Positions 9,216 through 44,449 of a DNA stretch of 64,000 bases are shown in pieces. The stretch is from Squalus acanthias. Lineage: Eukaryota. Location of the stretch: positions 4,900,001 through 4,964,000 of the forward strand of contig JASTWF010000033.1 in assembly GCA_030390025.1 (NCBI GenBank). Direction: 5' to 3'. The notes below the pieces were generated by a model. It was given only the letters and a program-made list of their open reading frames with translations. It had not been told where the DNA came from and searched no databases. Positions within the stretch are counted from its first letter, which is position 1. Each line of letters opens with the position of its first letter. Position numbers and translations under genes: made by a program.

Positions 9216-9253
9216 TTTTATTTTTTGCTCTCTTGAAACCTCCCCCCCACTAA

Positions 9254-20424: not shown

Positions 20425-21410
20425 TCAGTGGGTGGCAGTCTGGGGCTGAATATTACATACCGTGGCTGGAAACACTGGGAGCCGCCTCTGGGCTGCGCTC
20501 AGTTGTTTCTGATTATTAATGAATTGAATAATTGCGGTAAGTGGATATTTCACCGCCCTCTTCACCTGCTCTCTGAACTTGGACTGGGTCACCCCATAAA
20601 TAAATGTGTTTGTGCAGCAACTTAAATTCACCAGCATAAATCCGACTCGTTGAAAGATAAATAAAGAACCAGTGTAATATTTGGGATTTGTTCCTGCAAT
20701 GTTATAATATAAGAAATTTATAACATAGACCAGCCACAGCAGTATGAAGCTGCCGGATATGGTGAAGAGTAAAATCACAGACTTCCTTCTGCTCTCCATC
20801 TCTGGGTCTCTGCCATTCTCTCCCTTGCTCTCACCCCTCAGTCCCTTACGGACCCGACTGGCCACTAAAATGTGTCTGACTGTCAGAGCGTTGAGCAACA
20901 GAATTAAAGCGAATGGGAGCAATGGGGTTAAAACCGAATCAAACCAGTCAAATCCCACCCAGCCGGGCTCAGTATAATAGTTTGGGATTGTGACACAGAA
21001 CCACGGCACATTGTCGATTATCCTCCTGGGTTGAAATGTAAAGTAGAAGGGAACGTTTCTTAAAAAGAGCAGAATGCCGGTTGTTGCCAGAACCACAGCC
21101 GCAGTTTTCTTGGTGCAATATTTAGTTTTCAGCTTCTGGCAACAAATGGCCACAAATCGATCAAAGGTGAAAGTGACGGTGAACCAGACAGAACAGTCTG
21201 TGGCTGCAGCGGTCAGGACAAAGATCACACTACACACAGGGGTGATGTGCAGGAAAGACCATGGGAAATAATGCCATCTCATCCTCCGCAGTATGACCTC
21301 AGTGACAATGAACAGGAGATCCGCCGCTGCCATGGCCACCAGGTAGCGAGTGGTGCAGGTGGAGAGCCCGCACTTTCCCCGGGACAGGATCACAATTGCC
21401 AGCAAATTCA
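20425..21410 (-). CDS. Exon 2 of a class A orphan GPCR, GPR139/GPR142-like
   Basis: Open 986 bp with TM motifs NLLAIVIL, LVAMAAADLL, TFDRF, PLLPF..ILLLN, FILLW and NTFIY. Preceded by a strong acceptor TCTCTTTTCCCTTCTGTGTTTTACAG. Confidence 0.92.
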
Positions 21411-21486
21411 CTGTAAAACACAGAAGGGAAAAGAGACTGGAAATTACTGATCACACATTCGCCGTGTCTGATCCCAGACAGTAAGG

Positions 21487-21915
21487 GCTGGATTTTAACA
21501 CCCCAAAAAACCGGCGGGTTGGGGTCGGGTCGGAGGTGAAAATTTTAAAGACTTTCACGACACTAACCCGCCTCCAACCCGCCCGCTTCCGAGTTTAACC
21601 CCCGGGACCGGTCAAACCCCAGAGTCCGTGACCGGACACACCGCGGGATCAGACGCCCCATCCAACCTAGTTTCTTCTATTGGACCGACCTGGTTCTGCT
21701 CCGGAGTCTCCCCACCCCATCCGACTGGAAGCCCGACTCTCCATTAGGCTGAATTCCGGGGTGGGGAACCAGTCAAGGACAAAGGACGTACGCTGTGGAG
21801 TTAAGACCCTCCAACGTCCGGGAATACCTGGACTTCCTGTTATCCTGTCTGATATTACGCATCCACCCCGTACGCTCCGGCCATCTTACATGACCCGCCT
21901 TTGTTAATATCCAGG
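21487..21915. mobile_element. Possible MITE (non-autonomous DNA transposon)
   Basis: CpG-rich island bounded by imperfect inverted termini CTGGATTTTAAC / GTTAATATCCAG; TSD not clear. Confidence 0.45.
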
Positions 21916-21957
21916 AAGTATATGAAACAATCCAAAATACTGAGACTGCTGTAAATC

Positions 21958-23975
21958 AGATAAGAACATAAGAAATAGGAGCAGGAGAAGGCCATTCGGC
22001 CCATCGAGCCTGCTCCGCCATTCAATGAGATCATGGCTGATCTTCTGCCTCAACTCCATTCACCGGCCATATCGCCATATCCCTTGATTCCCCTACTTGT
22101 CAGAAATCTATCGACTTCTGTTTTGAATAAAAAACATTGACTGAACGTCCACAGTCCTCTGGGGTAGAGAATTCTAAAGATTCACCACCCTCTGTGTGAA
22201 GAAATTTCTTCTCAACCCATTTCTGAATGACCTACCCTTTATCCTAAGGCTGTGGCCCCTGGTTCTAGACTCCCCAGCCAAGGGAAACATTCTCCTAGCA
22301 TCCACCCTATCAAGCCCTGTAATAATTTTGTATGCTTCAATGAAATCCCATCTCATTCTTCTGAATTCAAGAAAATACAGGCCTAGTTTCCTCGATCTCT
22401 TCTCATACGACAGTTCCGCCATCCCAGGAATCAATTTCGTGAACCTTCGTTGCACTCCCTCTATTGCAAGTATATCCTTCCTTATGTAAGGAGACCACAA
22501 TTGTACACAGTACTCCAGGTGTGGTCTCACCAAGACCCTATATAATTGGAGGAAGACTTCTTTACTCCTGTACTCAAATCCTCTTGTAATGAAGGCCAGC
22601 ATACCATTTGCCTTCCTAATGGCTTTCTGCACCTGGACATTGACTTTCAGTGACACATGTACAAGGACACCGAGGTCCCTTTGAGCATCTGCATTCCCCA
22701 ATCTTTCACCATTTAGGAAATAGTCTGCCTTTCTGTGTTTTCTATCAAAGTGGATTACTTCACATTTATCCACATTTTATTCCATCTGCCATGTTCTCGC
22801 CCACTCACTGAGCCTGTAGAGATGCACTTGTAGCCTCTTCACATCAACTGACACTGCCACCTAGCTTTGTGTCGTCAGTATATTTGGAAATGTTACATTT
22901 AATTCCCTCATCCAAATCATTGATATAGATTGTGAATAGCTGGGGCCCAATCACCGATCCTTGGGGTACCCCATTAGTCACAGCCTGCCAATCTGAAAAA
23001 GACTAGTTTATCTCTCCTATTTGTTTTCTGTCTATTAACCAATTCTCAATCCATGCTAGTATATTACCCCTAATTCCCTGTGCCCTAATTTTGTTCAACA
23101 ACCTCTTGTGTGGGACCTTATCGAAGGCCTGCTGAAAATCGAAATACAGCACATCTACAGGTTCCCCTTTGTCTACTCCACTCGTTACATCCTCAAAGAA
23201 CTCCAATATGTTTGTCAAACAGGACTTCCCTTTCACAAATCAATGTTGACTCTGCCCAATCTTAATATTAGTTTCTAAGTGCCCAGTTATTGCATCCTTT
23301 ATAATACATTCCAGTATTTTCCCAACTACTGATGTGATGCTAACAGGTCTGTAGTTCACCGGTTTCTCTCTCCTTCCTTTTTTAAATAGCGTGGTTACAT
23401 TTTCTATCCTCCAATATGCAGGAACCGTTCCAGAATCTATAGAATTTTGGAAGATGACAATCAATGCGTCCAATATCCCAATGGCCACCTCTTTCAAAAC
23501 CCTGGGATGCAGGTCATCCAGTCCTTGAGATTTATCGACTTTTAGTCCCATTAATTTTGCTAGTACTGTTTTTTTACTAATAATAATTTATTCAAGTTCC
23601 TCATTCTCGCCACACCCTCGGTTTTCTCGTATTTCTGGGAGGTTTTTTGTGTCTTACTCCGTGAAGCCAGAAACAAAGTATTTATATAATTTTTAACCCA
23701 TTTCCTCATTCCCCATTATAAATGCTCCCGTCTCTGACTGTAAAGGACCTACATTTGCCTTCGCCAGTCTTTTCCTGTTCACATACCTATAGACGCTTTT
23801 ACAATCCGTGTTTATATTTTTTGCTAGTTGGTGCTCATATTCCATTTTCCCTTTCTTTATCAATTTCTTGGTCCCCCTTTTCTGATTTCTAAAGAGATCC
23901 CAATCCTCAGGCTGACTGTTTTTTTTCTGGCAACTTTATAAGCTTCCACTTTTGACTCAATACTAGCTTTAATTT
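21958..23975 (-). mobile_element. 5'-truncated degraded CR1 LINE
   Basis: RT ORF pieces 23240-23551, 23003-23236 and 22174-22773; tail at about 21960. Confidence 0.85.
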
Positions 23976-23984
23976 ATTAAAAAA

Positions 23985-25370
23985 GACAATTCTGAAAACA
24001 CTCAGCGGGTCAGGCAGCATCTGTGCAGAGAGAAACAGAGTTAACATTTCAGGTCGATGACTTTTCATCACAACTGGAAGATATCAGAGATTAACAGTAT
24101 TAAAGCAATGATAGAATCAGAGAAAAGTGCGGTTGCATAAGGATAGAAAAAAGAGGAATGACAAATGGGATGATGTTGCAAGGCGAATGGGACAATTAAA
24201 GATACAGAAGATGGGTCTAGAGGAGGTGTAAATGGTTACAGCAGAATAACAAGGGGGAGGGGCAGTAGGGCACATGTGGCAGAGAACGTTGGGTAGACCA
24301 CAGGTGTTTGAACAACCCGCTGGATGTGTACCGGGATCGCCAAAACAAATTCCCAACCAACACTTCCCCCACTCCCAGTGGCTCTGTTGGAGCCATCCTC
24401 CATTACCAGCACATGTCGTCCGAGAAAACGGGCGCGGAGGTTATGATCTGAAGATTTTAAAATTAGTGTTGAGTCCGAAAGTCAATAAAATGCCGGTATG
24501 AAATATACGGTACTGTTCCTCAAGAGTTTAAAAGGGGAACAGTGCAGGAGGCCGAAAACAGAGAGTTCAGAGTGGGAGTGGGATGTAGAATAAAAGTGGG
24601 AAGTGACCTGAAGCTCTGGATCACACTTGCGGACTGAACGGAGGCGTTCAGCAAAGCAATTACTCAATCTGCATTTAGTCCACCCAATGTACAGGAGACT
24701 GGATCGTGGGCAGCGAATATGATTTACTAAATAGGAAGAAGTACAAGTCAATTAGTCTTTCACGTGGATGGAATGTTTGGGGCCTTGGCTGGTGGGATGG
24801 AAAGAGGGGAAAGGGCTGCTGTTGCATCTCCTGCGCTTGCATAGGAAGGTGCCGGGGAAGGGGAGCAGATGTTAGTGGTGACGGAAGAGTGGACCAGGGT
24901 GTTGCAAGAACCGGGGGGTTGGGAGTGCAGGGGAAGATAGGTTTGTTGGTGGCCTTAGCTGGACATGCCGGAAATGGCAGAGGATGATCCGTTGAATGTG
25001 AAGGCTGGTGCAGTTGAAGCTGAGGACTAGGGGAACACTATCTGGGTTCTAGCAGGGAGGGCAATGGGTGATGGGAGCAATGCAGAATTGACACGGTCGA
25101 GGGCCGTGTCAATCACAATGGAGGTGAATACTCGGCTGAGGAAATATGAAGAGATTTCGGAAGCACTGGTGCGGAAGGTGGCGTCGTCAGAACATATGCA
25201 ACGGTGGTGGAGAAACTTTGAGAATAGAATAGAGCCCTTCCAGGAAGCCGGGTGGGAGGAAGTCTATTCAAGATTCCTGTGGGAGTTGTTGGAATTATAA
25301 TAGATATTGGTGGATGGCCTAGACCCTGAAATGAAGATCGAGAAGTCGAGGAAGGGAATGGAAGACCACT
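23985..25370 (-). mobile_element. Penelope-like element 3' fragment (GIY-YIG remnant + terminal repeat)
   Basis: IRCPRSSLLYIGWTKCRLSNCFAE resembles the GIY-YIG at 56609-56860. Terminal repeat with a decayed hammerhead core at about 24040-24075. Confidence 0.75.
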
Positions 25371-25371
25371 G

Positions 25372-28150
25372 TGGTTCACCATTTAAATGTTATTCCTGTA
25401 TTTAAAATGGAAGATAGAACAATTCCATGGATCTACAGACCAGTTAGCATAACGTCGATGGGAGGAAAGATAATGGAATCCTTACTCAAAGATTTAACAG
25501 AAAAACATCTAGAAACACAAAATATAATAACGAGTAGTCAGCAGGTAACCCAAAATGGAATCAAAGAATGGTTACAGCACAGAAGGAGGCCATTCGGCCT
25601 GTCGAGCCCGTGCTCATTCTCTGCACATGCACTGCCGCTAATCCCAATCCCCGCCCTTTCACCGTAGCCCTGCAATTCTTTTCCTTCAGGTAATTATCCC
25701 ATTTCCTTTTGAAAGCCACGATTGAATCTGCCTGCACCACCCGTTTCAAGCAGTGCATTCCAGATCATAACCCAACGCTGTCTTAAAAAGTTTTTCCTCA
25801 TGTCGCCTTTGGATCTTCAGCACATCACCTAAAACTTGTGCCCTCTGGTTCTCGACCGTTCTACCAATGGGAACAGCTTCTCTCTATCTGCTCTGTCTAC
25901 TCTGTCTAGAACCCTCACGATTTTGATCACCTCTCTCAAATCTCCTCTCAATTTTTTCTGCTCTAAGGTGAACAACCCCAACTTCATTGGTATATATACG
26001 TAACCAAAGACCCTCTTCCCTGGAACCATTCTTGTGAATCTTTTCTGCACCCTCTCTAAAGCCTTCATTCCCTTCCTGAAGTGTGGTGCCCAGAATTGGA
26101 CACAAATCTCCAGTTGTGACCGGACCAATGTTTTATAAATGTTTATCATAAATTCCTTGCTTTTGTACTCTATGCCTCTGTTTATAAAGCTCAGATTCCC
26201 GTAAGCATTTTTAACCGCTTTCTAAACATGCCCTGCCACCTTCAACGATTATTGTACATATACCCCCAGGTCACTCTGTTCCTGCACCCCCTTTAGAATG
26301 TCTTGCTTGAGTAAACTTAGTGAATTCTTTGAGTAAGTACCAGAACGACTAGATAAGGGTAATGCAGTCGATGTAATATACTTTGATTTTTTAAAACCAT
26401 TGGATAAGGTACCACATAGCAGACTGAATCACAGAGCAAGTGAAGTTAAGAGACAAGCAGCAGGATGGATTGCAAACTGGCTGCAAGAACAGAAAATAGG
26501 GAACAGTGGAAAAGCTATTAACTCAGATAGGTGGATGGTGAGAAGTAAGGTTCCACATGGATCCGCGTTGGAACTGCTGTTGTTCACCATTTTCATAAAC
26601 GATATTGATTCGGGAAGCAGAAGCACAAATTCAAAATTTGCAGATGAATTACACTTGGGAACAGAGTTAATAAAGAGGAAGAATACAAAACAACACCTGA
26701 AGACATTAATTAACTTGCAGAAAGGGCGTCTAAATGGAAAATTAATTTCAATAAAGCTAAGTGAGAGGTACTGCATTTTGGTAGGAAGAATAAGGTTCCC
26801 AAATACTCCTTGGAAAATCTGAGTGGGAATGGAGTAGAGGGGTACCGATTAACAAATCATTTAAAGTGGCAATGCATGTTAACAGGGCCATAAACATGCA
26901 AACAAAGCACTGGGGTTCATTTCGAGAAGAATAGAATGGTAAAGCAAAGAGGTTAGCTTAAACTTATATCGAACCTTGGTTATACCACACTGAGCGTACT
27001 GTGTGCAGTTCTGATCTCCATATTACATAAAGGATATTAAGGCTCAGGAGAAAGTGCAATTTTTTGACAAGGAAGACACCAGAACTGAGACATTGGCCCA
27101 GAAATTGGAGTTCGATGGTTGCCGCGGGGGTAATGATCCCCCACAATATCGCACTCCGCGCCTATCTTTATGGTTTTGACCCACACAATCTTCAGTTCCT
27201 GGGTCTCTCCCTGGTGCCGGCGCGCAGTGTGTGCGTGTCCCAGAGGCGCAGTTAATTCGATGCGACCTCTGGGATCACGTGGGCCAGTTAGAGCCAATGG
27301 CAGCACTCCATCTTTCATTCATAGCTTTGTCAGCAAGAGCTGTCAATACTATGAATACAACAAGCCCCCAAAAGAACAGCTAAACCTCAATTAAATTTAA
27401 AAAATAGCCATCACATTAATAAAATAACTATAGTTAAATAAATTAACCACTTTAAACAAAAATTTAAATTTTTGAAAGCATTTAAATTCTTTTTAAAAGT
27501 TATAAAAATAAACTTACCTTTCTTTCAAGTCTCTGAAAAAGATAAACCTGTTGAAATATTTTTTAAATAATACTTAATTAACTACTTACCTTGTTAAAAG
27601 GGGGTCTTACGCCTGCTTTCTTTATGTGTAAAATCTTAAACACTTACCTGCGCATTCAAACCTGAAAAAAAAACTAAGTGCGCTGCGTGCGCACAACCTG
27701 TAGCACGCACGCGGTTCACTTAGGAACCGCACCCTTCGCAATATCCGAAGTGCCGGTTTCCCGTGCATGCGCAGTGCATGCAGGAAACCGGCACTTCGGG
27801 ACCTAATACGCGAGAGTACACAGTGCGTAATCTCCCATATTAGGTCTAATTTTCGGGCCATTATAAACATCAGGAAAGATTGAAAAGTCTGGGGCTCCTT
27901 CCTTTACAAAAGAGAAGGCCGAGGGGTGGCCGAATAGAGGTCTTTAAATTTTGAAGGGCTAACTAAGGGTAGATGTTTATACTCGTGACGTGAGTGCAAA
28001 ATTGGAGATTATCGATAAAAGAGAGTCACTAATAAATCCAATACAGAATTGAGGAGAAATGTCTTTACTCAGAGATTGGTTAGAATGTGGAACTCCCTAC
28101 AACTTGGAGTACTTGAGGCGAATAGCAGAGATGCACTTCAGGGGAAGCGA
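25372..28150 (+). mobile_element. Old CR1 interrupted by a minus-strand CR1 (about 25555-26298) and a MITE; its 3' end resumes at about 42350-42490
   Basis: Decayed RT motifs (YRPVSITS, DKVPH, VPHGS, FADE). Sequence is continuous from GGGGAAGCGA at 28150 to GAGAAGTACACGAGG at 42352. Confidence 0.7.
27095..27859. mobile_element. Non-autonomous PIF/Harbinger-like MITE, 3-bp TSD ATT
   Basis: Termini GGCCCAGAAATTGGA / TCTAATTTTCGGGCC; ATT at 27092-27094 and 27860-27862. Flanks rejoin as CR1 sequence. Confidence 0.75.
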
Positions 28151-28163
28151 GAGTCATAGAGTC

Positions 28164-31100
28164 ATCTTCTTCTTTCTTCTCTTCCTAGGCAGTCCCTCGG
28201 AACCGAGGATGACTTGCTTCCACATTAAAAATGAGTTCGCAGGTGACTGATGAGTCTAATGCGGGACCTACAGTCTCTGTCAGAGGTGGGGCAGACGGTG
28301 GCTGGAGGGGCGGGTAGGTGGGGTGCTTGGGTTGACGTGCGCTCCTTCCGCTGATTGCGCTTGGCTTCCGCTTGCTCCTGGCGAAGAGACTCGACGTATT
28401 CGAGTCCTTCCCGGATGCTTCTCCTAAACTTTGTGCGGTGTTGGGCCAGGGATTCCCAGGTGTCGGTGGGGATTTTGCACTTTTTAAAGGAGGCTTTCAG
28501 GATGTCCTTGAAGCGTTTCCTCTGCCCACCTGGGGCTCTCTTGCCGTGTCGGAGCTCCGAGTAGAGCGCTTGTTTTGGGAGTCTCGTATCGGGCATACGG
28601 ACAATTTGACCCGTCCATCGGAGCTGATCGAGCGTGGCCAAAGCTTCGATGCTCGGAATTTTGGCCTGAGCGAGAACACTGACGTTGGTGCGCCTACCCT
28701 GCCAATGGATTTGCAGAATCTTGTGTAGGCAGCGTTGGTGGTACCTCTCCAGTGCTTTGAGGTGCCTACTGTACATGGTCCATGACTCTGAGGCTTACAG
28801 GAGGGCGGGTATCACTACTGCTCTGTAGACCATGAGCTTAGTGCCGGGTTTGAGATCCTGGTTTTCAAACACTCTCTTCCTCAGGCGACCGAAGGCTGCA
28901 CTGGCACACTGAAGGCGATGTTGGACTTCGTCATCAACGTCTGCCCTTGTTGACAGTAGGCTCCCGAGGTAGGGAAAGTGGTGCACGTTGTCCAAGGCCT
29001 TGTCGTGGATTTTTATAATCGGCGCAGTACTGTGTGGCGGGCTCAGGTTGGTAGAGGACCTTTGTCTTACGGATGTTTAGTGTAAGGCCCATGCTCTCGT
29101 ATGCTTCCATGAAGCTGTTAACGAAGGTTTGGAGTTTGACCTCCGAGTGAGTGCAGACGCAAGCGTCGTCAGCATACTGTAATTCGACGACAGAGGATGG
29201 GACGACCTTGGATCTGGACTGGAGGCGACGGAAGTTGAACAGTTTCCAGTTTGTTCTGTAAATTATCTCCTCTCCAGCGGGGAGCTTTCTGAGGGTGAGA
29301 TGGAGCATTGCCGCAATGATGTTCGAGAAGGGCGTTAGTGCGATGATACAGCCTTGCTCGACCCCGGTCTGTACATGAATTGGGTCTGTGGTGGAAACGT
29401 TGGTCAGGATCACGGCTTGCATGTCATCGTGAAGCAGGCGGAGGATGGTGACAAACTTTTGAGGGCAGCCGAATTTGAGGAGGATGCTCTATAATCCATC
29501 ACGGTTAACAATGGCACAGGCCTTGTGAGGTCAAAGAATGCCATGTACAGCGGTTGGTGCTGTTCCTTGCATTTCTCTTGTAGTTGACGTGCGGTAAAGA
29601 TCATGTCCATTGTGCCGCTTAGTGGGCGGAATCCGCATTGCGACTTTGGGAGGAGCTCTTCAGCAACTGGAAGAAGGCGATTGAAAAGGATTCTTGCGAT
29701 GATATTCAATGTGGCAGACAGCAGGGAAACTCCTCTGTAATTACCGCAATCGGACTTTTCACCTTTCTTGTAGATGGTCACAATTACGGCGTCTCTGATA
29801 TCCCCTGGCATGCACTCCTCCTTCCAGATAAGAGAAATTAGTTAATCAAATTCGCGCCAGTAGTGTTTCTCTGCAATGCTTTAGCGCCTCGGCAGAGATT
29901 CCATCTGCTCCTGAGGCTTGCTTGTTCTTCAAATGTCGGATGGTCATTTCAACCTCATGCCGGGCTGGGGTTTTGCTGAGGGGGTGGTGGGTAGCATGCT
30001 GCGGGATGGAGTTGAGGACTCTCGCGTCGGAGACAGAGTCTCGGTTAAGGAGATCATTCAAGTGCTCCTTCCAGCGGCCATGACTGTCCTTGATGAGTAC
30101 CTCTCCGTTCTTGGCCCGCAGTGGGGCAGGACCTTGGATGCTTTGGCCATAGATGGTCTTGATTGCGCTAAAGAATCCACGCACGTCGTGGTTGTCCACA
30201 AGCTGCTGGATCTCCTGCGCTTTCCCCACCCACCATCTGTTCTTTAGGTCGCGAGTTTTCTGTTGGACCTCAGAATTCAGGCGTCTGTAGAGCTGCATTG
30301 TTGCTCTCGAGTTGTGTTGCTGTTTCCAAATCAGGAATGTCTTGCGCCTACGGCTTATTACCTCCTGGATCTCCTGGTCGTTCTCGTCGAACCAGTCTTG
30401 GTGTTTCCTTGCCGAGTGACCGAGCGTCTCTTCACAGGTGCTGATTATGGAGGCCTTGAGTGCAGACCAGGCGCTGTGGACACTCTGTGTCACTGCATCA
30501 CTGGGGGTCGTCAGGTTGGTTGTGAGACGCAGGCTGAATAGAGCTTTCTTAGCAGGGTCTTTGAGTGCTCCAGCGTTGATTTTCCTGCGGCATTGTTTCT
30601 GTTGCCGCCGCTGTTTTGGGGCTACATTGATGGAGATGACAGAGTGGATTAGGCCGTGTTCTGTCCAGCAGACGTCAGCTCCTGTCATGGCACGGGTGCT
30701 GCCTATATCCTTGCGGTCCCTCGCTCGGACGATGACGTAGTCCAGCAGGTGCCAGTACTTGGAGCGAGGTTGCTGCCATGAAGCCTTGTGTTTGTCTCTC
30801 TGACGGAACAAGGTGTTGGTTATGACAAGGCCATGTTCTAAGCATTTCGTCAGGAGGAGGGTACTGTTGGATTTGAATATCCCTACCCCCTCTCTGCCGA
30901 TCACACCTCCCCAGAGGTCTGTGTCCTTTCCAACTCTGGCGTTGAAGTCGCCAAGGAGGATCAGCTTGTCACCCTTTGGGACTCGGGACAGAGATTGTTC
31001 GAGGCTGGAGTAGAATTCCTCTTTGATCTCGTCTGTGACTTCCAGTGTTGGGGCATACACACTGATGACGGTTACGCACTGGTTCCGGGCTAGGGTGAGC

Positions 31101-31524: not shown

Positions 31525-34500
31525 GACATAAGGACATAAGAACATAAGAAATAGGAGCAGGAGTAGGCCAATTGGCCCCTCGAGCCTGCTCCGCCATTCA
31601 ATAAGATCATGGCTGATCTGATCCTAACCGCCAATCTACTATCACAGAACCATCTCCTGAATCTAACAGAATTGGACACACGAAATAGGAGCAGGATCAG
31701 GCTACACGGCCCCTGGGCCCGCTCCGCTACCCACAGGGCCATGACCGATCCGAACCTAGACTCATGTCCAAATTCCTGCCCACTCCCCGTAACCCTTAAT
31801 TCCCTTTACTTCTAGGAAACTGTCTATTTCTGTTTTAAATTTATGTAATGATGTAGCTTCTACAGCTTTTTGTGGCATCATATTCCATGGACCTACCACC
31901 CTCTGAGGGAAGTAGTTCCTCCTCATCTCAGTTTTGAAAGAGCAGCCCCTTATTCTAAGACTATGCCCCCTAGTTCTAGTTTCACCCATCATCAGGAACA
32001 TCCTCCCTGCCTCCACCCGATCCAACCCCTTCACAATCTTATATGTTTCAATAAGATCGCCTCTCATTCTTCTGAACTCCAATGAGTAGAGTCCCAATCT
32101 ACCCAACCTCTCCTCATATGTCCATCCCCTCATCCCCGGGATTAACCGAGTGAACCTTCTTTGTACTGACTCGAGAGCAAGGATGTCTTTTCTTAAGTAT
32201 GGACACCAAAACTACATGCAGTATTCCAGGTGCGGTCTCACCAATACCTTGTACAACTGAAGCAATACCTCCCTATTTTTATATTCTATCCCCCTGGCAA
32301 TGAAAGCCAACATTCCATTGGCCTTCTTAATCACTTTCTGCACCTGCATACTAACCTTTTGAGTTTCGTGCACCAGGACCCCCAGATCCCTTTGTACTTC
32401 AGTACTTTCCAGTTTCTTCCCATTTAGATAATAACTTGCTCTGCTATGTTTCCTGCCAAAGTGCATAACCTTACACTTTCCAGTATTGTATTCCATCTGC
32501 CAAATCTCTGCCCACTTACTTAGCCTGTCTAAGTCCCCTTGCAGGTTTTTTATGTCCTCCTGACTCACTACTTTCCCTCCCATCTTAGTATCATCTTCAA
32601 ACTTCGATATGTTACACTCGGTCACCGCCTCCAAATCGTTAATATAGATTGTAAAGAGTTGGGGACCCAGCACTGACCCCTGCGGAACACCACTAGTTAC
32701 TGATTGCCAGTCTGAGAATGAACCACTTAGCCCAACTCTCTGCCTTCTGTTAGATAGCCAATCCTCTATCCATGCCAGAATATTACCCCCAATCCCGTGA
32801 TTTTTTATCTTAAGCGTATATCTTTTGTGTGGCACCTTGTCAAATGCCGTTTGTAAGTCTAAATACACCACATCCAATGGTTCCCATTTATCCACCCTGT
32901 GTGTTACTTCCTCAAAGAACTCCAGCAAATTTGTCAAACATGACTTCCCCTTCATAAAACCATGCTGACTTTGTCCTATTAAATTATGATTATCCAAATG
33001 TCCCGTTATTGTCTCCTTAATAATGGACTCCAAAATTTTACCTACCACAGATTTTAGGCTAACCGGTCTATAGTTTCCAGCCTTCTGTCTACTGCCCTTT
33101 TTAAATAAGGGTGTTACATTAGCAGTTTTCCAGTCTGCCGGGATCTTTGCTGAGTCCAGGGAATTTTGGAAAATTATTACCAATGCATCCACAATCCCTA
33201 CCGCCACTTCCCTCAAGACCCTAGGATGTAATCCATCAGGTCCAGGTGATTTATCCGCCTTGAGTCCCATTATTTTACCGAGTACCACTTCCTTAGTGAT
33301 TTTGATCGTGTTTAGCTCCTCCACCCCCCTATAGCCCCCTGTTTGTCCAGTGTTGGGATATTCTTAGTGTCCTCTACTGTAAAGACTGATACAAAATATT
33401 TATTCAGTGTTTTTGCCATCTCCATATTTCCCACAATTAATTTCCTGGTCTCATCCTCTAAGGGACCAACATTTACTTTAGCCACCCTTTTTCTTTTTAT
33501 AGAACTATAAAAACTCTTAGTATCTGTTTTTATATTTTTTGCTAATTTACTTTCATAATCTATCTTCGCTTTCTTAATAAATCTTTTTGTTATTTTTTGC
33601 AGTCTTTTAAAGATTTCCCAATCCTCTATCCTCCCACTAGATTTGGCTACCTTATAACCACTTGTTTTTTGTCGAATACTATCCTTAATTTCTTTACTTA
33701 GCCACGGATGACTGTCTTTTCTTTTACACCCTTTTCTTCTCAGTGGAATATATATTTTTGGGAAGTTGTAAAATAACTCCTTAAATGTACACCACTGATC
33801 ATGTATCGACTTACCCTTTAATCTATTTTCCCAATCCACTCTACTCAATTCCGCTCGCATACCTTCATAGTCTCCTTTATTCAAGCTTAGCACGCTTGTT
33901 TGAGATCCAAACTTCTCACCCTCTAATTGAATATGGAATTCAACCATGTTATGGTCACTCATTTCAAGGGGATCCTTTACTAGGACATTTTTAATTAATC
34001 CTGTCTCGTTATACAGGACCAGATCTAAGGTTGCTTGCCCCCTCGTCGGTTCAGTTACATACTGCTGAAGAAACCCATCCCTAATACACTCAGTGAACTC
34101 ATCCTCAAGGCAGCCCTGCCCAATTTGATTTGTCCAATTAATATGATAGTTAAAAGCCCCCATAATTATAGATGTTCCCTTATTACAAGCCTCAACTATT
34201 TCCTGATTGATACTCCGTCCAACAGAGTTGCAACTATTCGGAGGCCTATAGACTACGCCCACTAATGTTTTTTCCCCTTATTATTCCTTATCTCCACCCA
34301 AACTGTTTCATTATCCTGATCTTTTGACCCAATATAATTTCTCTGTGTTACAGTGATTGCTTCCTTTATTAAAATCGCCACACTACCTCCCCTTCCTTCC
34401 TGCCTGTCCTTCCTGATCGTTAAATAACCTGGTATGTTTAATTCCCAGGCATTGTCACCCTGCAGCAATGTTTCTGTAATGGCCACAAGATCATACCCAT

Positions 34501-36533
34501 ATGTAGTTATTTGTGCCATTAACTCGTCTATTTTGTTACGAATGCGACGTGGATTCAGATAGAGAACTTTCCAATATGTTTTGTGACACTTAGTTCCTGT
34601 TTTTGCCCTTTTTATTACTTTACCTTTTACTCCATACCTTCTGCCCCTTTCTGACACACTCTGGTTTTTAATTTCCCCACTGCTACCTAAGTCTATGACC
34701 TTCTCTGTTGTCATTTTTATTATTTGCTCTCTAGGAACCTCCCCCTCACTAGTTAGTTTAAAGCCCTCTCTACAGCCCTAGTTATGTGATCCGCCAGGCT
34801 TCTAGTCCCAGCACTGGCCAAGTGAAGCCCGTCCCAACGGAACAGCTCCCTCCTGCCCCAGTACTGGTGCCAGTGTCCCAGGAAGCAAAACCCATTTCTC
34901 CCACACCAGTCTTTGAGCCACTCGTTTAACTCTCTAATTTTATTTGTCCTAGCCAAATTCGCTCGTGGCTCAGGCAGTAATCCAGAGATTATTACCCTTG
35001 AGGTTCTGTTTCTAATTTTACCCCAAGCTGCTCATACTCCTTTAACAGAACCGGCTTCCTTGTCCTATCTACGTCGTTTGTACCAACATGGACCACGACA
35101 ACTGGATCCACCCCGTCCCACTGCAAGTTTATTTCCAGCCCAGAGGAGATGTCCTGAACTCTGGCACCGGGCAGGCAAGACAACCTACGGGACTCTCGCT
35201 CTCGGCTGCAGAGAACCCTATCTATCCCCCTAATAATACTATCCCCTACCACTACAACATTTCTATTTACTCCCCCTCTTGAATGGCCCCCCTTTTCACG
35301 GTGCTGTGGCCAGGTTGCTCATCCTCCCTGCAGTCCCTGCTCCTGTCCCCACAGGAGTAAGAACCTCGAACCTGCTGGACAAGAGCAAGGGCTGCGGCTC
35401 CTCCAACAGTACCCCCTGGATCCCTGTACCTGCCTCACTCGTAGGCACACCGTCCTGTCCCTGACCATGTGCTACATCTGAATTAATTAACTTCATAGGT
35501 GTGACCACCTCCTGAAACACAGAGTCCAGGTACTTCTCCCACTCCCTGATGTGTCGCAGTGTCTGAAGCTCAGACTCCAGCTCATCAACACAGAGCTGGA
35601 GTTCCTGTAGCAGCAGCCACTTTTCACAGATGTAATCACCGTGAGCCTCAATGGGGTCCACCGGCTCCCACATCTCGCAACAGTAACACATCACCTGCTC
35701 CATTCTATGTAATTAATCACCTTTTTTATTGTTAGTTATGGACACTCTCTACCCGATTATAGATGCCAGTATCCCCTTTAATGAATTGGATTTAAATTCA
35801 ATCAAACACTCTAAATTACACCAGTTAAATGGTTTACCAACAGTCACTCTGCACCAGAAAGGTCTTATTAACTACAACCTTCAGAGTTAAAGTTTGAAAA
35901 GAGCACCCTACACCCGAACTCACACTTACCCAAACTCACAGCACTCTCTGCTGGCTCGCACTAGCTCTGGTCTTTTTATACTGTTTGTTTGTTTACATCC
36001 AAATGAGGCACCCGTGCTGATAGGTTAGAAAACTGGTTTCCACTGCCTGCTGTGCCAATTTACTCCTACTTCAGTGTAACCTTGTTTTACTCTTCTTCTT
36101 CTTTTATTCAAATACAATAATACCTGTACAGCTCATCAATTACATAGTAAATCCATTACATAGTAAATCCATTAGATTCATCCATCACAGTAAAAAAATA
36201 AAGCCGTAAAAACAGCCTTATAATTAATAGAAATGCAATGATTACTTTTACAAATAATCAATAATGTTTACAGTACAAATACCCTTAAACAATTCCACAC
36301 AACTTTTTAGATTTAAAATAATAAATCTCAAAGTTAACTACACATAAAACAAACCATTTCAACACCAGTGTACAGTTTTACTCTTCTTAAACCAACAGAA
36401 TCCCAAATATATTACTTTTCCCCTTCACTTTAACTGCTTAAGTACTCTTATCAAGAATGATTTAAAGAGAACTGACAATTAAGGAACTCTCACACTTGCC
36501 CAAATTCACAGCACTCTCTGCTGACTCGCACTC
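31525..36533 (-). mobile_element. Full-length CR1 LINE, same subfamily as 6024-10164, with 5' UTR; ORFs frameshifted
   Basis: ORF1 pieces 34753-35703 (CYCCEMW, GDS, GTND, DGLHL), ORF2 pieces 31762-34714, shared unusual 3' UTR, 8-bp tail. Confidence 0.9.
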
Positions 36534-37118
36534 AGTATTTTGCTATCTTATATTCTATGCTTCGGCTAATGAAGGCAAGTATCCCAGATGCCTTTTTAAA
36601 CACCTGGGGGTAAAAATTCAGTTGGTTGCGCCTCCCGTTAGCGCCTTAAATGGGCGCTAATGGGGCGTTAAGGCGCTAACGCCCGGGCGCAGCGCTGTTT
36701 GCGCCGCTCGAGAACTTAACTTGAGATTGTGCGGCAGCGCTAAAACTTACCGCTGCGACCACCTGCGCGCGCAGATTGTGACGTCAGTCCGTGGTGCAAC
36801 GCCCTTGGGGCGCCCCGGAGCGGAAATTGAGTGGCGCCCCCTGCCTTACCGCCTGGCGCTTCCAACGACCGGAAGACTGGAACGTTATCAATCGGTCTGG
36901 GGCTGGGGGGGGCGCTATTTAAAGGGGGCCTCTTCCTGTCTTTTTCTGTGGTCGACATTTATGCACCACTCGTTCTGAGAGAGAGAGAGAGATTCGGAGA
37001 GAGAGAGAGAGAGACTTCTACATTGACTCAACGCTTTGTGAGGTAGTTTTGCCTAGTTCATCCTAACTTTGCTGCTACTTTCGTTGCTGTACCTCATTAC
37101 TTTTCTGGCAAAGAGAAG

Positions 37119-38279
37119 ATGGGGGCTGCAATGATTGGGGGCGTCGTCCTGCTCCAGCTCAATCGGAGCAGAGTGAGACGCAGACAGAGAGTGGCAATGA
37201 TGGCCAGACGGAGGAGGCCCATCAGGCGCATGTACAGGAGAGCTTACCCTCCCAGGGTATATCGTGAACAGCTCTCCTACATCCACATGTCCGAGGAGCT
37301 GTGTTTGTGAAGGCTGCGATTCAGCAAGGAGGTGGTCACTGAGCTCTGCCACCTGCTGCAGCCAGATCTGCAGCCTCAGCTGAGGTCCAGGACGTCTCTG
37401 TCGGTGGCAGTGAAGGTCACAGTGGCCTTGAACTTCTACGCCACTGGCTCATTCCAAGCTGCTGTTGGGGACCTCGCCAATATCTCCCAGTTTGCGGTGC
37501 ATCGCTGCATCCGGCAGGTCACCAATGCCCTCTTCACAAGGAGACGAGACTTCATCTCCTTCCCTATGACCCCAGACAAGCAGCATGACCGTGCTATGGG
37601 CTTTGCGAGGGTAGCGGGCTTCCCCATGGTGCAGGGCGCCATTGACTGCACGCATGTGACTTTGCGTGCTCCGCGAGAGAATGCAGAGGAGTTCCGGAAC
37701 AGAAAGGGGTTCCATTCCTTGAATATGCAGTTGGTCTGTGACCACAGACAGGTGATTCTCGCTGTCAATGCCCACTATCCGGGCAGCTGCCACGATGCTT
37801 TCATCCTGCGCCAGAGTGCTGTGGCAGAAATTTTCGAGGCACCGCATCAGCCAGTCGGTTGGCTTCTGGGGGACAAGGGGTACGCATTGAGCACCTGGCT
37901 GATGACACCGCTCCGTGCGCCAAACACCCCTGCTGAGCTGCGGTACCAGGAAAGCCAACAAGCAACGAGGAACATTATTGAGCGCACAATCGGCGTGCTC
38001 AAACAACGATTCCGCTGTCTGGACCATTCCGGAGGAGCCCTGCAGTACTCGCCTGAGCAAGTTTCCAAATTCGTAGTGGTGTGCTGCATGTTGCACAACA
38101 TGGCAATCCTCAGGACGCAGCCAATGCCACCAGGCCTTGCAGCACCACAAGAGGAGGAGGAGGAAGAGGAGGAACAGGCCGAGGACGATGATCAGCAGCA
38201 GCACCAAGGCAGGAGGGCGGCCCACAATGGTGAAACTGCAAGGGCCGTCCGTCAACGACTAATAGCAAGCCGCTTCTAG
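37119..38279 (+). pseudogene. Harbinger/HARBI1-like DDE transposase with one in-frame TGA (37308-37310)
   Basis: ORFs 37119-37310 and 37332-38279 are in one frame (ELCL*RLRF). Motifs GAIDCTH, NRKGFHSLN, PGSCHD, LLGDKGY, IERTIGVLKQRFRCL and CCMLHN. Confidence 0.9.
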
Positions 38280-38573
38280 GGCCCCTGCCAGTGCTACAAA
38301 CACGAATCAACCCAGCACGCAACCCCTAAGCCGGCCAAGGCACCAATAATTCCAACCACCAGCCATGTATATTTTGAATACAGAAACTTATTTATTGTAC
38401 AAACTCTGTGTGTGTCAATTCCTCATGACAAACTCATAGAAATAAACACAAAAAAACAGTCAATAATATAACTGGTTCTCACAACCTGGAGATAATGTCC
38501 AAAACACTAAACAAAAGTTGGGCCATGAACCTCGGCCTTTAATAAAAAAATGACCAGCATTTTGGCACACCTC

Positions 38574-40449
38574 CTACTTTTTGCCCTTCGAGGGTGATCT
38601 CCTTCCCTTGCGCACTTCCCCCCTTCTAACCCTACTGCTCCTCCGTAATGGGACCTCAGTGGCTGCAGCAAGGCTGGTGGAAGGCTGCTGCTTGTCAGAC
38701 CCTGACACTGCAGATGCCCCTGAAGGCCGGCCTCGACCACTTCTGGGCCTGGAGGGCCCGGCTGCAGACTGCACCAACTCTGCATGGGCGGCAGCAGTCT
38801 GTCCTACAGGCGGTGGCAAGTGCAGTGGAGAAGTGACAGTGTTGGCAGCAGGAATGCTGTCATCGTGAGAGAGGACAGCAACTCCCTGCTCGCCCGACAC
38901 ACTGGCACTCCCACGGGGCAGCACTTCAGCATCCGGAGCAATTTGCCTGAGAACAGATTGCTGGCCTGCTGCGGCGCGGTGACAGCCCCGGGGACATGTG
39001 CACGAACCATCGAGGATGGCAGCAGTCAGTGCTCGCGTGGCCTCAATCTGAGTCTGCATGAGAGCAGGCTCAGATGGGTTCCTGGCAGCCAGTGACTGAA
39101 TTGCAGCAGTAAGCTTTAGTGTGGCATCCGCCTGTGCTACAGCGAAGTGCTCCACACTCCTTGCCAGTGCCTCAATGCATTCGGGCACCCTTCCCACTGC
39201 ACCCATGAGCTCAGTGTGCATGACCACCGCCTGGCTGTTCATTTCTGCAATCATCCGCTCCTCCTCTGCGTCCATTGCATTAGGAGTGTCTGGCATACTC
39301 TCCCTCTGGGGAGAAGGCTCCCGTTCTTCCCTCCCCCCCCCCCATGGCGTTGCTGCAGCCCGCTGGGTCCTGGAACTTCACCATCATCAGCCCCTTCCCC
39401 CCTGCTCCCCTCCGGGGAAGGCGTGTTCCCAGTGTGGCCATGGGCTTCCTCGGGAGAGGGTGGCACTGATGCTCCGGCTTCCTCCTCCTCAGCTGCAGCA
39501 TCACTCCCAGTGGCAGCTTCAGGGACCATCTCCTCAGCTGGTGAATCACCATCTGAAAGCAGGGAGGTACAAGAGTGGCTTTAGCGTGAGGACAGGGTGG
39601 CAGTAAGGGAGGAATAAGTGCAGCGAGTTAGCAAGTTGGATTGAAAGTGTCAAAGGCTGGTATTGTGAGGGACAAGTGGAAGGACAGAGGACAAAAAGGT
39701 GATGACCTTACCATTGCTGTCCACAACGGGGTCGGCGTCCCCAGTGGCGACGGGACCGATCACCCGGCTTGCCACAATCCTGTGGACGCGCTCCTCCAGA
39801 TCGCTGAGGGGTTGCAGCTGAAGCCGCCCTCCACCCGTCCGTTGCTGCTGTCTCCGATTATGAGCCAGCTTAGCCTGCAAGAAAAAGGACAGCATCTGAG
39901 TCAATATACAGCCATGGTCTTGCCTGATGTGCCTCCCATAGGTGAATAGCCCTTACAATATGCAGCCATGGTCTTGCCTGATGTGCCTCCCATAGGTGAA
40001 TAGCCCTTACAATATGCAGCCATGGTCTTGCCTGATGTGCCTCCCATAGGTGAATAGCCCTTACTGTATGCAAAGTGTGGAATGTGTGTGTGTGTTTGAT
40101 GAAAGGGCCATAGGTGTTGGATGAGTGTTGTGCATTGGGGTTTTAAGACCCTCTGGCCATAGAGTGAGGTTGAGATGGAGGGATGGAGAGGTATTGAGAA
40201 AAAGCCACTCACCCTGACGACCCGAGTGAGGTCGTTGAACTTTTTGCGGCACTGGACATGGGTCCTGGGCACCATGCTCCTGGAGGAGACGCTCTGAGCC
40301 ACCTCCCTCCACACTCTTCTGAACTCGCGTGGCAAAGGCCTCCTGCCACTCTCTGGGAACAGCATGCATCGTCTGCGCTCCACTGCGTCAACCAGAGCAT
40401 CCAAGGCCCGCTCGGTGAAGCGATGAGCGCGTTCTCTCACCCTCTCCAT
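38574..40449 (-). CDS. Harbinger Myb/SANT-like (trihelix) DNA-binding protein; predicted exons 40213-40449, 39712-39874, 38574-39552; one frameshift in a poly-G run near 39333-39342
   Basis: RAHRFTERALDALV..WREVA..QCRKKFNDL followed by AKLAHNRR..RTGGG. Canonical GT-AG sites (AGG|GTGAGT, TTGCAG|, G|GTAAGG, TTTCAG|) keep the frame. Basic NLS-like C-terminus. Confidence 0.8.
39903..40064. repeat. 54-bp tandem repeat x3 in Myb-gene intron 1
   Basis: Unit AATATGCAGCCATGGTCTTGCCTGATGTGCCTCCCATAGGTGAATAGCCCTTAC. Confidence 0.9.
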
Positions 40450-43112
40450 TCTTGGCAGCAAAATGGATTACAGGTCTCTCCAGGCTGAGATTCAAGGCTG
40501 CAATGAGCAGGGTGTGGCTGGGGAGCAAGTGCCCCCCCCCCGCTTTAAGAAGTGTCCGGCGCCAGTGTGTCTGTGTTACCGCGCTAACTGGCAGCAGCTG
40601 CGCTGCGCTCGTGCGCTGAGTTAGCGCCTCACTCCTAGGCCTTTGCGCCTTAAGAGAGGTGTGCAGCGCCTAATTTAGCGCTCCACTCACCTCCCGGGGC
40701 GGTAAAAGTGAAGTTTCCTGTCAGTGCCGATAATTAGCGCCAGGCGCTAATATTTGCGCGCGGACGATATTTGCGCCCCAAATGGGGCGCGACCTAATTT
40801 CTACCCCCTTATCTACCTGTCCTGCTGCCTTCATGGATCTATGTACATGGATACCAAGGTCCCTCTGATCCTCTGTCCTTCCTAGGATCATACCATTCGT
40901 TGTTTATTCCCTTGCCTTGTTTGTCCTCCCAAAATGCATCACCTCACACTTTTCAGGGTTAAATTCAATTTGCCACTGTTCTGCCCATCTGACCATTCCG
41001 TCTATATCGTCCTTTACCCTGAGGCTTCCCTCCTCGCTATTTACCACTGCACCAATTTTCGTGTCATCTTCGAACTTACTGATCATACCTCCTACATTCA
41101 TATCCAAATCATTAATGTACACGACAAACAGCAAGGGACCCAGCACCGATCCCTGCGGTACAGCACTGGATACAGGCTTCCAGTCACAGAAACAACCTTT
41201 CACCATCACCCTCTGCCTCCTGCCACTAAGCCAATTTTGGATCCAATGTGCCAAGTTGCCCTGGATCCCATGGGCTTTTACCTTCTCGATCAGTCTCCCA
41301 TGCGGGACTTTCTCAAAAGCCTTACTGAAGTCCATGTAGACTACACCAACTGCACTACCCTCATCCACACACCTAGTCACCCGCTCGAAAAATTCAATCA
41401 AATTGGTTCGACATGATCTCCCCCTGACAAAGCCAAGCTGACTATCCCTGATTAATCCCTGCCTGTCCAAGTGGAGACTAATTCTGTCCCTCAGAATTTT
41501 TTCCAATAATTTACCTACCACGGATGTTAGGCTCACTGGCCTGTAATCATCTGGTTTATCCCTACTACCCTTCTTAAACAATGGTAATACGTTAGCTGTT
41601 CTCCAGTCCTCTGGCACCTCCCCTGTTGCACGAGAGGTTCTAAAAATTTGGGTCAGAGCCCCTGCAATCTCCTCCCTAGCCTCACACAGCAGCCTGGGAT
41701 ATATCCCGTCAGGGCCTGGGGATTTATCCACTTTTAAGCCCGCTAAAACCGCTAGTACCTCCTCCCTCTCAATAATAATTTGTTCAAATATATCACAATC
41801 CCGCTGCCTGATTTCTATGCCTACGTCACCCTCTCCATATTGAACACAGATGCAAAATATTCATTTAAAACCTCACTTATATCTTACGGAGCTGCACACA
41901 GATTGCCACTTTGGTCCCTAATGGGCCCTACTCTTGCCCTGGTTATCCTCTTGCCCTTAATATACATTAAAAACACCTTGGGATTTTCCTTTATTTTGCC
42001 TGCCAATGTTTTTTCATGCCCCCTATCGCTGTCCTAATTTCTGTTTTAAGTACCCCCCCTGCACTTTCTATACTCCTCTAGGGCTTCCACTGTTTTTAGT
42101 CCTTTGTATCTGCCAAAAGATTCCCTTTTTTAACGAATCAATTGTTGTATATCCCTTGACATCCTTGGGTCCCAGGGCTTGTTGGTCTCACCCTTGACCG
42201 TTACAGGAACATGTTGGCATTGTACTCTCTCTATTTCCTTTCTGCAAGACTCCCATTGCTCTGATGTGGATTTTCCTACAAGTAGCTGATCCCAGTCCAT
42301 TTTGGCCAGATCCTGCCTTACCATTTGAAAATCGGCCTTCCCCAATTTAGAGAGAAGTACACGAGGTAGAAAGCAGTAGAAGGTTATGCTGATAGGGTGA
42401 TATGAAGCGGGGTGGGAGGAGGCTCCAGTGGAGCATAAACACTGGCATAACCTAGTGTGGCCGAATGGCCTGTTTTGTGCAGTAATTTCTAAGGAGTTCT
42501 CCGTAACTTCAATACAAATTAATCCCATTCATCAGTTAATTTAATAATTGTGGATATTGAAGTGTTTTATTTATTGAAACATTGCCCTATATATTACATT
42601 ATTATCAAGTTATTAATGCTATTATTTACTGCCCTCGGGAATCATCTGTGTATTATGAAAACCCGATATGCATGTTCTTCAGTTATACGTGTCCCTCCTC
42701 GCAGGGAATCACCTCACTGAGCTAAGGCCAGAGATCGTTGCAGATTATCTGTGTAGAGACTCTGAATCAGAGGTAAGAACTGGTTCGTCAAACCTTAATC
42801 AGTTCCAGAAGTGGAATACTCAAAAACCACAGCCCAATATTCAGCCCGTCTAACGGTAACATAATGAAATTCAGCACTTATGACCCACAGATTCTCAGGA
42901 CTGTGTTGGGGGAAGGGGATTAATCAGCACCAAAAAAATTAAAGTGTTTACAATAACTATACATAGAGTAAGAATAAGTCATTATGCAGAGGATTTGAAT
43001 ACTGTGAAACTACTGTCCTGCTGTTTACCTGTCAGTAATTAGTTAACATCTGTTTCTGTTGGTGCAGTTCAATAGGAAACAAAGCATTATCAATACATTT
43101 CACCTTATATAT

Positions 43113-43615
43113 GAACATAAGATCATAAGAAACAGGAGCAGGAGTAGGCCTTACGGCCCCTCGAGCCAGCTCCGCCATTCAATAAGATCATGGCTGATCA
43201 TCGACCTCAATAGCCCTTTCCTGCCCTATCTCCATATCCCTTGATTCCCCGAGAGTCCAAAAATCCATCTATCTCAGTCTTGAAAATACTCAAAGACTCA
43301 GCATTTACAGGCCTCTGTGGAAGAGACTTCCAAAGATTCACAAACCTCTGAGTATAGAATATCCTTCTCATTCAGTCTTACATGGCCTACCCCTTATCCT
43401 GATAATATGCCCCCTATTTCTAGACACTCCAGCCAGGAGAAACAACCTCTCAGCATCGAACCTTGGCAAATCCCTTCAGAATCTTTTATGTTTCAATGAG
43501 ATCAAATCTCATTCTTCTAAACTGCAGAGAGTATAAGCCCATTCTACACAATCTCTCATCATAGGACAGCCCTCTCATCCTAGGAATCAATCTCGTGAAC
43601 CTTCGCTGCAGCCCC
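43113..43615 (-). mobile_element. CR1 3' fragment
   Basis: Tail plus 3'-UTR stem-loop region and RT C-terminus. Confidence 0.8.
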
Positions 43616-43758
43616 TCATATGCTTATAACCAAACTTCTTCAATCAACAGCAAAAATCTTCCCCTTAGCCATTGATTACATTGTGAAAACACGAATGCAG
43701 CTCCATAAAGGGGATAGATCATTTATCTAAAACAATAATTTCAAATTGGAAACGACTT

Positions 43759-43973
43759 GTTCCACTCCGGTTAGTGACCCAGACTCAGTACAGTTCTACA
43801 GTGACAGATACTCCCAGTAATACATGGCCTTTGAGGTCAGATGTTCCACTCCAGTTAGTGACCCACACTCAGTACAGTTCTACAGTGACAGATACTCCCA
43901 GTAATACATGGCCACTGGGGTCAGGTGTTCCACTCCAGTTAGTGACCCACACTCAGTGGTTCTACAGTGACAG
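43759..43973. repeat. 84-bp tandem repeat (about 2.6 copies)
   Basis: GTTCCACTCC..TTAGTGACCCA recurs at 43759, 43843 and 43927. Confidence 0.85.
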
Positions 43974-44290
43974 TCCCTTCCACTAATACCTTCTCTCAGA
44001 GAGTTACTTACACTTAGGTCTGATTCAACAGTACACACTATTACACTGAAGGCAATAATTTCATAAAACAGCGAGCCCGTGAGTAACAAACAGAATTTTA
44101 CTTTCAGTTGAGGCAATTGAATAAAACCTCAGATAATTCAGGACATTTGACTGAACGAAATGATATCATTGATCAGTTGTCTGTATAACGGTGACCACTA
44201 GATCAGAATGTAACATTATCAGTCACAGAGCAAAACCAGAGACCAGCTGACACACAGATTTACACTACTTCAATGGTTATACTCACTCAC

Positions 44291-44357
44291 CTGGAACACC
44301 AATGACGGCAATGATCATGTAGTATATTTTCTCCAGATGTTGATTTGGCAGATTCAT
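44291..44357 (-). CDS. Exon 1 of the GPR139-like GPCR (MNLPNQHLEKIYYMIIAVIGVP, phase 1)
   Basis: AAAATG start, 22 codons + G, donor CAG|GTGAGT. It splices in frame to exon 2 (G|TG = Val) to complete TM1: IYYMIIAVIGVPVNLLAIVIL. Confidence 0.88.
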
Positions 44358-44442
44358 TTTCTGTGTGAAGCGATGTGTCCCTTCGTGCTGCAGGCAATCT
44401 CTCTGAATTAAACTCTGAGGCGGGACATTCCCAGAGCCTTTC

Positions 44443-44449
44443 ATTTATA
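44443..44449 (-). promoter_or_regulatory. TATA box of the GPCR gene
   Basis: GGGTATAAATG on the minus strand, about 85 bp upstream of the ATG. Confidence 0.6.

Follow-up and report, generated by a model that had tools for sequence, protein, structure and literature searches.

An intact two-exon G protein-coupled receptor gene of Squalus acanthias belongs to a large cartilaginous-fish family with a variable predicted ligand pocket, a candidate chemical-sensing repertoire

Here, we describe a receptor gene on the minus strand of a 64,000-nucleotide stretch of Squalus acanthias DNA (GenBank assembly GCA_030390025.1, contig JASTWF010000033.1, positions 4,900,001 to 4,964,000), a stretch referred to below as the window. 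The gene is an intact, ordinary member of its family, and the interest lies in that family and not in the single window gene. Across cartilaginous fishes, the family has a large number of paralogs whose predicted ligand pocket varies strongly, while the intracellular face is nearly constant. We tentatively favor the view, with confidence a little short of even, that sensory cells may use this family as a repertoire of chemical-sensing receptors. The gene and its upstream region are laid out as follows, in the direction of transcription and with positions counted in the window.

44863..46821, no strand given: 18-bp satellite array of some 109 units; the distance from its end to the TATA box downstream is 414 nt
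44444..44449, minus strand: TATA box (TATAAA, first base 44449), 92 nt upstream of the ATG
44358..44438, minus strand: core promoter and 5' leader, conserved with a horn-shark paralog
44291..44357, minus strand: coding exon 1, 67 nt, from the ATG; N-terminus of about 10 residues and the first half of transmembrane helix 1 (TM1)
44285..44290, minus strand: splice donor GTGAGT, phase 1
21411..44290, minus strand: intron, 22,880 nt, GT-AG, phase 1
21411..21449, minus strand: branch-like site, polypyrimidine tract and CAG acceptor
20425..21410, minus strand: coding exon 2, 986 nt, remainder of TM1 through the stop; Pfam 7tm_1 at E 6.6e-22
20425..20506, minus strand: 25-residue tail extension; compared with paralogs, there is an extra base near 20506

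An earlier note, made from the sequence alone, had proposed this two-exon structure with its GTGAGT donor, phase-1 splice, 350-residue product and upstream TATA box, and all of these elements were confirmed. The spliced frame of exons 1 and 2 encodes 350 amino acids plus the stop; the motifs that the note had read from it, DRF, LWLV and NTFIY, are located at residues 106, 247 and 290, respectively, and the exon junction falls between GVP and VN, as it had said. At the acceptor of exon 2, pyrimidines make up 83% of the last 30 nt, with CAG at the end. A scoring matrix was derived from the N-terminal segments of 102 database paralogs, with the window sequence left out, and applied to the window in all six frames; exon 1 reached 47.4 bits, compared with 4.3 bits for the runner-up site anywhere in the window. 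A tblastn search detected no second exon 2 in the 64 kb, and the pairing of the two exons is therefore unique; use of a different first exon, an objection that the note itself had raised, finds no candidate in the window. The sole run of Ns in the window (46996-47495) falls outside the gene, and no other host gene was recognized among the open reading frames of the window, in which this receptor copy stands alone.

The encoded protein is a class A (rhodopsin-like) G protein-coupled receptor (GPCR). It scores 78.7 bits with Pfam 7tm_1 (curated cutoff, 30.5 bits) and matches no other Pfam family at E≤0.001, and the anchor residues N1.50, D2.50, D-R at 3.49-3.50, P5.50, W6.48 and C3.25 are all present. 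By hydropathy alone, six of the seven helices exceed 1.6. An AlphaFold model of exon 2 is a helical bundle with a predicted local distance difference test (pLDDT) value of 87.7, and its Foldseek matches are all class A receptors (TM of about 0.6 to 0.7), although their ranking did not single out GPR139 over the neurotensin or ghrelin receptors. Membership in the OR, TAAR, ORA/V1R, V2R or T2R families was ruled out, as only 7tm_1 matched and the nearest relatives are GPR139-like.

The description of the gene as intact stood, with the qualification that its tail is unusually long. Conservation in at least 90% of 92 close paralogs defines 159 columns, of which the window protein keeps 158 (the paralog median is five misses), indicating that the copy is not decaying, and on this basis a pseudogene was rejected. 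From the K-Y-P motif to the C-terminus, however, the window copy has 41 residues, compared with 16 in 69 of the 85 motif-bearing paralogs. The extra base near 20506 places the usual family stop, at 20501-20499, one base out of frame, and the 25 added residues result from this.

Sequencing runs provided weak hints for splicing in paralogs, not for the junction of the window gene. Part of the stretch is contained in 20 of 22 rows, in none of them half or more, and no row is recorded as RNA; the four runs compared with 20300-21600 show relatives only. Three runs guessed to be RNA, with coded tissue labels, carry paralog contigs whose cover falls past the acceptor while that of a DNA run continues, and in run X19 the unaligned end of one contig, 9 letters at 21408, resembles the end of exon 1.

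Of 6,204 candidates from a protein search, 2,688 clusters had E≤1e-10. Among the best 120 of these clusters, for which taxa are known, 119 belong to named sharks or rays (60 to horn shark and 30 to sawshark) and one is unnamed. The shark and ray proteins listed are nearly all automatically labeled "probable GPR139"; the family is thus already in the databases, under a misleading name. It occurs in 21 named shark or ray species and one chimaera among the matches listed. Horn-shark-led clusters at 90% identity number at least 74 (60 + 3 + 11), and 25 of the 60 horn-shark representatives list one common contig size, 74.5 Mb. As many as 13 sawshark or 9 horn-shark proteins fall in a single cluster, indicating that duplication has been recent as well as old, and in the DNA run of one relative, 3,565 contigs matched the 1.3-kb stretch at 20300-21600 at 80% or more, a figure that reflects a large family and not a copy number. 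In database models P0349, P0001, P0002 and P0314, a family member is joined to C2H2 zinc fingers or to a neighboring paralog, which suggests tandem arrays and zinc-finger neighbors in other sharks. A metagenome scan for loci yielded 329 pattern matches, 0 of which were confirmed.

The earlier note had assigned the gene to a lineage-specific expansion. A large cartilaginous-fish radiation is indeed what we observed, with the window copy nested among many paralogs and no sign of a single-copy ortholog; the lineage itself, however, is not restricted to sharks, since a sister gene exists in amphibians, sturgeon and reedfish. In the representative search, there is a gap below about 36% identity down to a few bony-vertebrate proteins. 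A follow-up search gave 94 matches, comprising 21 amphibian clusters, one from sturgeon and one from reedfish, with the other 71 made up of 69 from cartilaginous fishes and 2 unnamed. With one cluster per species among the matches listed, the amphibian/sturgeon/reedfish gene (P0238, P0277-P0296 and P0312) is apparently single-copy, and it was not found in amniotes or teleosts by the searches run. Two quick trees (78 and 42 rows, supported by the Shimodaira-Hasegawa-like approximate likelihood-ratio test [SH-aLRT] only) unite this gene and the shark radiation in one clade (100% and 99%), outside which the coelacanth, teleost and amphioxus GPR139-like proteins fall. The amphibian set is sister to the sharks in one tree and unresolved against two basal shark rows in the other. 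Deep subfamilies are common to sharks and rays, and the chimaera protein lies inside the shark radiation with weak support. The window copy groups with sawshark paralogs at 97% in one tree, a grouping not repeated in the other, and is placed here only within sharks and rays.

The functional argument is carried by the pattern of variation. We compared 92 shark and ray paralogs (the subset of the best 120 with 295 to 350 residues) with 22 amphibian orthologs, the mean identities being 73% and 76%, respectively. In the shark and ray set, entropy was 1.60 bits at 25 pocket positions versus 0.66 bits at other helix positions (p 1.6e-6, although the paralogs are related and p values overstate their independence), whereas in amphibians the pocket had 0.08 bits and the other helix positions 0.49 bits. 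This contrast was kept in 200 of 200 subsamples of 22 sequences, with a smallest difference of 0.75 bits. Values of 1.41 bits in the shark pocket and 0.50 bits in the rest of the helices, compared with 0.08 and 0.50 bits in amphibians, were also obtained at similar overall divergence. Similarly, outer and inner helix halves had 1.23 and 0.38 bits in sharks but 0.37 and 0.60 bits in amphibians, and the inner halves of the shark proteins are near-invariant (0.25-0.45 bits). The buried shark pocket is as variable as the outer loops or more so (1.60 versus 0.91-1.66 bits). Within single species, the six-residue pocket combination takes 43 forms in 45 horn-shark proteins and 25 forms in 28 sawshark proteins, compared with a single form in the 22 amphibian proteins. 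From a variable pocket combined with a conserved G-protein face, we infer that the members of the family would recognize many ligands but signal through one transducer.

In the reading that we favor, an ancestral jawed-vertebrate gene of GPR139/142 kin would have been duplicated many times in cartilaginous fishes. Its ligand would probably have been an aromatic amino acid or a small peptide, as the pocket of the amphibian copy suggests. Having kept one intracellular face, the copies would drive one G protein; through the conserved core promoter, they would share a cell type; and divergence between subgroups at 3.29, 3.32, 3.33, 6.51, 7.35 and 7.39 would give them differing ligand preferences. 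The cells would most likely be olfactory, taste, solitary chemosensory or somatosensory ones and the ligands most likely water-soluble small molecules or peptides, of which the window copy would detect one class. We lean toward sensory cells because of the amino-acid-sensor kin of the family, the small canonical chemoreceptor set of the catshark, and chemosensory offshoots of the wider clade in nematodes and a snail. The catshark set is given as 2 OR, 6 OR-like, 3 ORA, 3 TAAR, 2 TARL and 32 V2R genes in the accessible part of its description (PMC11979771), and a snail "probable GPR139" is reported as high in the osphradium in an excerpt of another study (PMC10638732); the nematode Srw chemoreceptor cluster, with a feature score of 0.96, is a lead only.

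A bolder proposal is that these genes are the overlooked main chemoreceptor family of sharks and rays, larger than the V2R set, acting in olfaction or taste and independently derived from the GPR139/142 branch. We consider this possible but doubtful; if true, it would overturn the view of a shark nose run by a few dozen V2Rs. The available portions of two papers describe sharks as poor in chemoreceptor genes (PMC11979771) and cartilaginous fishes as showing a paucity of GPCRs (PMC8455134, on the whale shark), and yet one species holds at least 74 clusters. The literature that we found, in a coverage lacking most subscription papers and some supplements, does not describe the shark expansion, with 0 matches in three files searched of the skate genome supplements and 0 matches in 12 of 24 whale-shark files. 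As far as these searches reach, this is an expanded GPCR repertoire from a branch that is not known to expand in vertebrates.

Several observations weigh against the sensory reading or the evidence beneath it. Our 25 pocket positions were numbered by counting from anchor residues, not from a ligand-bound model. The youngest duplicates, in clusters above 90% identity, show no enrichment of changes in the pocket (3/25 versus 12/150 [p 0.36] and 2/25 versus 13/150 [p 0.67]); recent copies thus look redundant, and positive selection is unproven. True GPR139 and GPR142 are absent from both trees, so closeness to them rests on profiles, and as a single sequence, the window protein matches the ghrelin receptor and GPR139 about equally (39.7 and 38.3 bits). 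At the locus, the 2.7 kb next to the stop contain no AATAAA. For a catshark library of brain plus olfactory tissue, the part of the source available gives no GPCR among the 50 most specific genes, a weak point as V2Rs are missing too (PMC11979771). Lastly, a motif scan of the conserved core promoter found no O/E site, and a kB-like palindrome without an O/E site would point rather to immune use.

An immune or barrier-cell repertoire, in which leukocytes or epithelial sentinels would sense microbial or damage-derived peptides and metabolites in the manner of formyl-peptide receptors or MRGPRs, is somewhat unlikely. The expansion and the pocket pattern fit it equally. The palindrome in question is an 11-mer at 44422-44432, downstream of the TATA box but ahead of where transcription is expected to start, in a leader in which 26 of 28 in-frame residues, ATG included, equal a horn-shark database model that reads through it. 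However, with an expectation of 0.03-0.10, it came from a post hoc scan for nine motifs, and its conservation at the DNA level was not seen; furthermore, the spot between a TATA box and a start site is odd for an activator. It also counts against immune use that the family is most closely related to amino-acid sensors of neural or endocrine cells and not to chemoattractant receptors. In its favor, cartilaginous fishes are without MAS1 and its relatives (PMC8455134), and most catshark OR genes peak outside the nose, for example in the spleen (PMC11979771), as far as the accessible text of these papers goes.

We regard it as rather unlikely that the family reflects mostly passive amplification, with small exons copied by segmental duplication and unequal crossing-over in regions rich in repeats, copies of which most are redundant or weakly expressed, and a pocket variety due to relaxed constraint. 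The near-identical clusters of 13 and 9 proteins in single species, with no pocket enrichment, speak for such a process, as do the many partial or fused gene models and, at the window locus, the upstream satellite array, the transposon-filled intron and the frameshifted tail. Against it stand open frames, near-invariant inner helix halves and the 158 conserved columns kept, deep subfamilies common to sharks and rays, and a buried pocket at 1.60 bits next to outer loops at 0.91-1.66 bits. Internal sensing of nutrients or metabolites in gut, endocrine or osmoregulatory cells, as an enlarged GPR142/GPR139 role, appears improbable. Kinship with Trp/Phe receptors and a sister gene that retains most pocket residues agree with it, but internal ligands are few and usually served by few conserved receptors, whereas in the shark family, pocket types number in the dozens in each species. 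That the window gene is the shark GPR139 ortholog is scarcely credible, and the earlier note was right to reject it: despite the database label, the two exons and the top profile match, the protein is 23% identical to human GPR139, compared with 70% for the zebrafish protein in the part of the source available (PMC7318219), it retains one of five ligand residues, and it is nested among many paralogs and not single-copy.

The note had also described the intron of about 22.9 kb as filled with transposons, and this was borne out. Matches to transposon proteins or open reading frames cover 15,645 of its 22,880 bases (68%, a figure that is in part query frames of the window matching themselves), and 16,938 bases (74%) are covered when other repeats are counted, values that are minima. 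The elements are what we take to be CR1, RTE-like and Penelope-like pieces and one Harbinger element; Pfam domains back the CR1-type, RTE-type endonuclease and Harbinger assignments. The Harbinger/PIF-type DNA transposon spans about 36600-40800, where a DDE_Tnp_4 frame (37311-38276, plus strand) faces a Myb/SANT frame (39904-40467, minus strand), with a further open frame at 38577-39377 (minus strand); terminal inverted repeats were searched for and not clearly defined. Two near-full-length copies of a CR1-type long interspersed nuclear element, at 6024-10164 and 31526-35660, are 93% identical over 4.1 kb and carry a GDSL-esterase ORF1 (open reading frame 1), the second copy being intronic. 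Within the intron, most of the sequence that matches retroelement proteins has the orientation of the gene (12,129 versus 1,119 nt, from few independent insertions), the reverse of the antisense bias that mammalian introns usually show. Elsewhere in the window, 458-1550 holds long terminal repeat or retroviral fragments with an integrase core (Pfam rve) and a presumably RNase H-like frame. A G-rich 29-bp repeat forms arrays at 12312-12700 and 60466-60822, each after the same 27-bp-period sequence, and is probably part of a dispersed repeat. The 18-bp satellite upstream of the gene, which is followed by a 16-bp-period repeat and then the 500-N gap, gives, on the plus strand, a long and probably meaningless open frame that encodes six-residue repeats.

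Among known systems, GPR139 (human; PDB 7vug and 9m42) and GPR142 share the class A fold of the window protein. GPR139 is the top PDB match of both the shark family profile (106.5 versus 90.3 bits) and the amphibian-sturgeon profile (62.2 versus 46.9 bits), profile A1 of this comparison including 6 non-shark rows among 38, and the kinship claimed by the earlier note thus holds in that, by profile, no solved human receptor is closer than GPR139. Like the window protein, GPR139 has two exons (the accessible text of PMC7318219 does not state the intron site), W6.48, GxP-x-N in TM1 and no proline in its TM7 motif. The phase-1 intron after GxP in TM1 is found in the window gene, in shark paralogs and in the DNA of a relative, and it is inferred for a coelacanth relative from a read-through gene model. 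The lack of proline in NTFIY of TM7 is not special, as the human GPR139 motif also lacks it. In TM6, for which the note had remarked on the missing proline, P6.50 is present in GPR139, the amphibian gene and some basal shark members and absent from the window protein, pointing to its loss within the shark radiation. The window protein also has a cysteine pair from C3.25 to loop 2, whereas the printed alignment shows a residue other than cysteine at 3.25 of GPR139, and GPR139 is a single conserved gene, unlike the large shark family. Activation or binding of GPR139 by Trp/Phe has been tied to F3.33, H5.43, W6.48, R6.51 and N7.38/39 in the available part of one study (PMC5430874). At 3.33, 5.43, 6.48, 6.51 and 7.39, the window protein has A, D, W, Y and F; four of the five residues are replaced, and it therefore probably does not bind Trp/Phe in the manner of GPR139.

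Orphan receptors from outside the mammals have been named GPR210A/B (Rinne et al. 2019, PMC6504862) and, in a table, "Orphan 139-like" (PMC5207463); in the portions of these sources available, they are placed beside GPR139/142 in coelacanth, gar and teleosts, and the GPR210 survey contains no shark data and lists no amphibian member. The coelacanth and teleost matches P0237, P0248 and P0258, which fall just outside the shark-plus-amphibian clade, are probably GPR210A/B or "Orphan 139-like" proteins. The closest bony-vertebrate relative is the amphibian/sturgeon/reedfish gene, represented by Xenopus tropicalis XP_031757816.1 ("probable GPR139"; 31% identity), which shares with the shark family a D-P-E..RR motif before TM6. 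It differs in its invariant, GPR139-like pocket and in the P6.50 kept in amphibians; the amphibian gene retains F3.33, W6.48 and N7.39, with a lysine at 6.51 where GPR139 has R. In Xenopus, this apparently single-copy relative gives laboratory access to the question of the ancestral ligand.

The systems that would work most alike are the TAARs, ORA/V1R, MRGPRs, formyl-peptide receptors and nematode Srw receptors, repertoires that evolve by birth and death, are clustered in the genome, and combine a variable pocket with a conserved inner face. The shark family resembles them in being lineage-specific and clustered, with the same pairing of variable pocket and conserved inner face. It is set apart from all of them by its separate origin, on the GPR139/142 branch, and by matching only Pfam 7tm_1.

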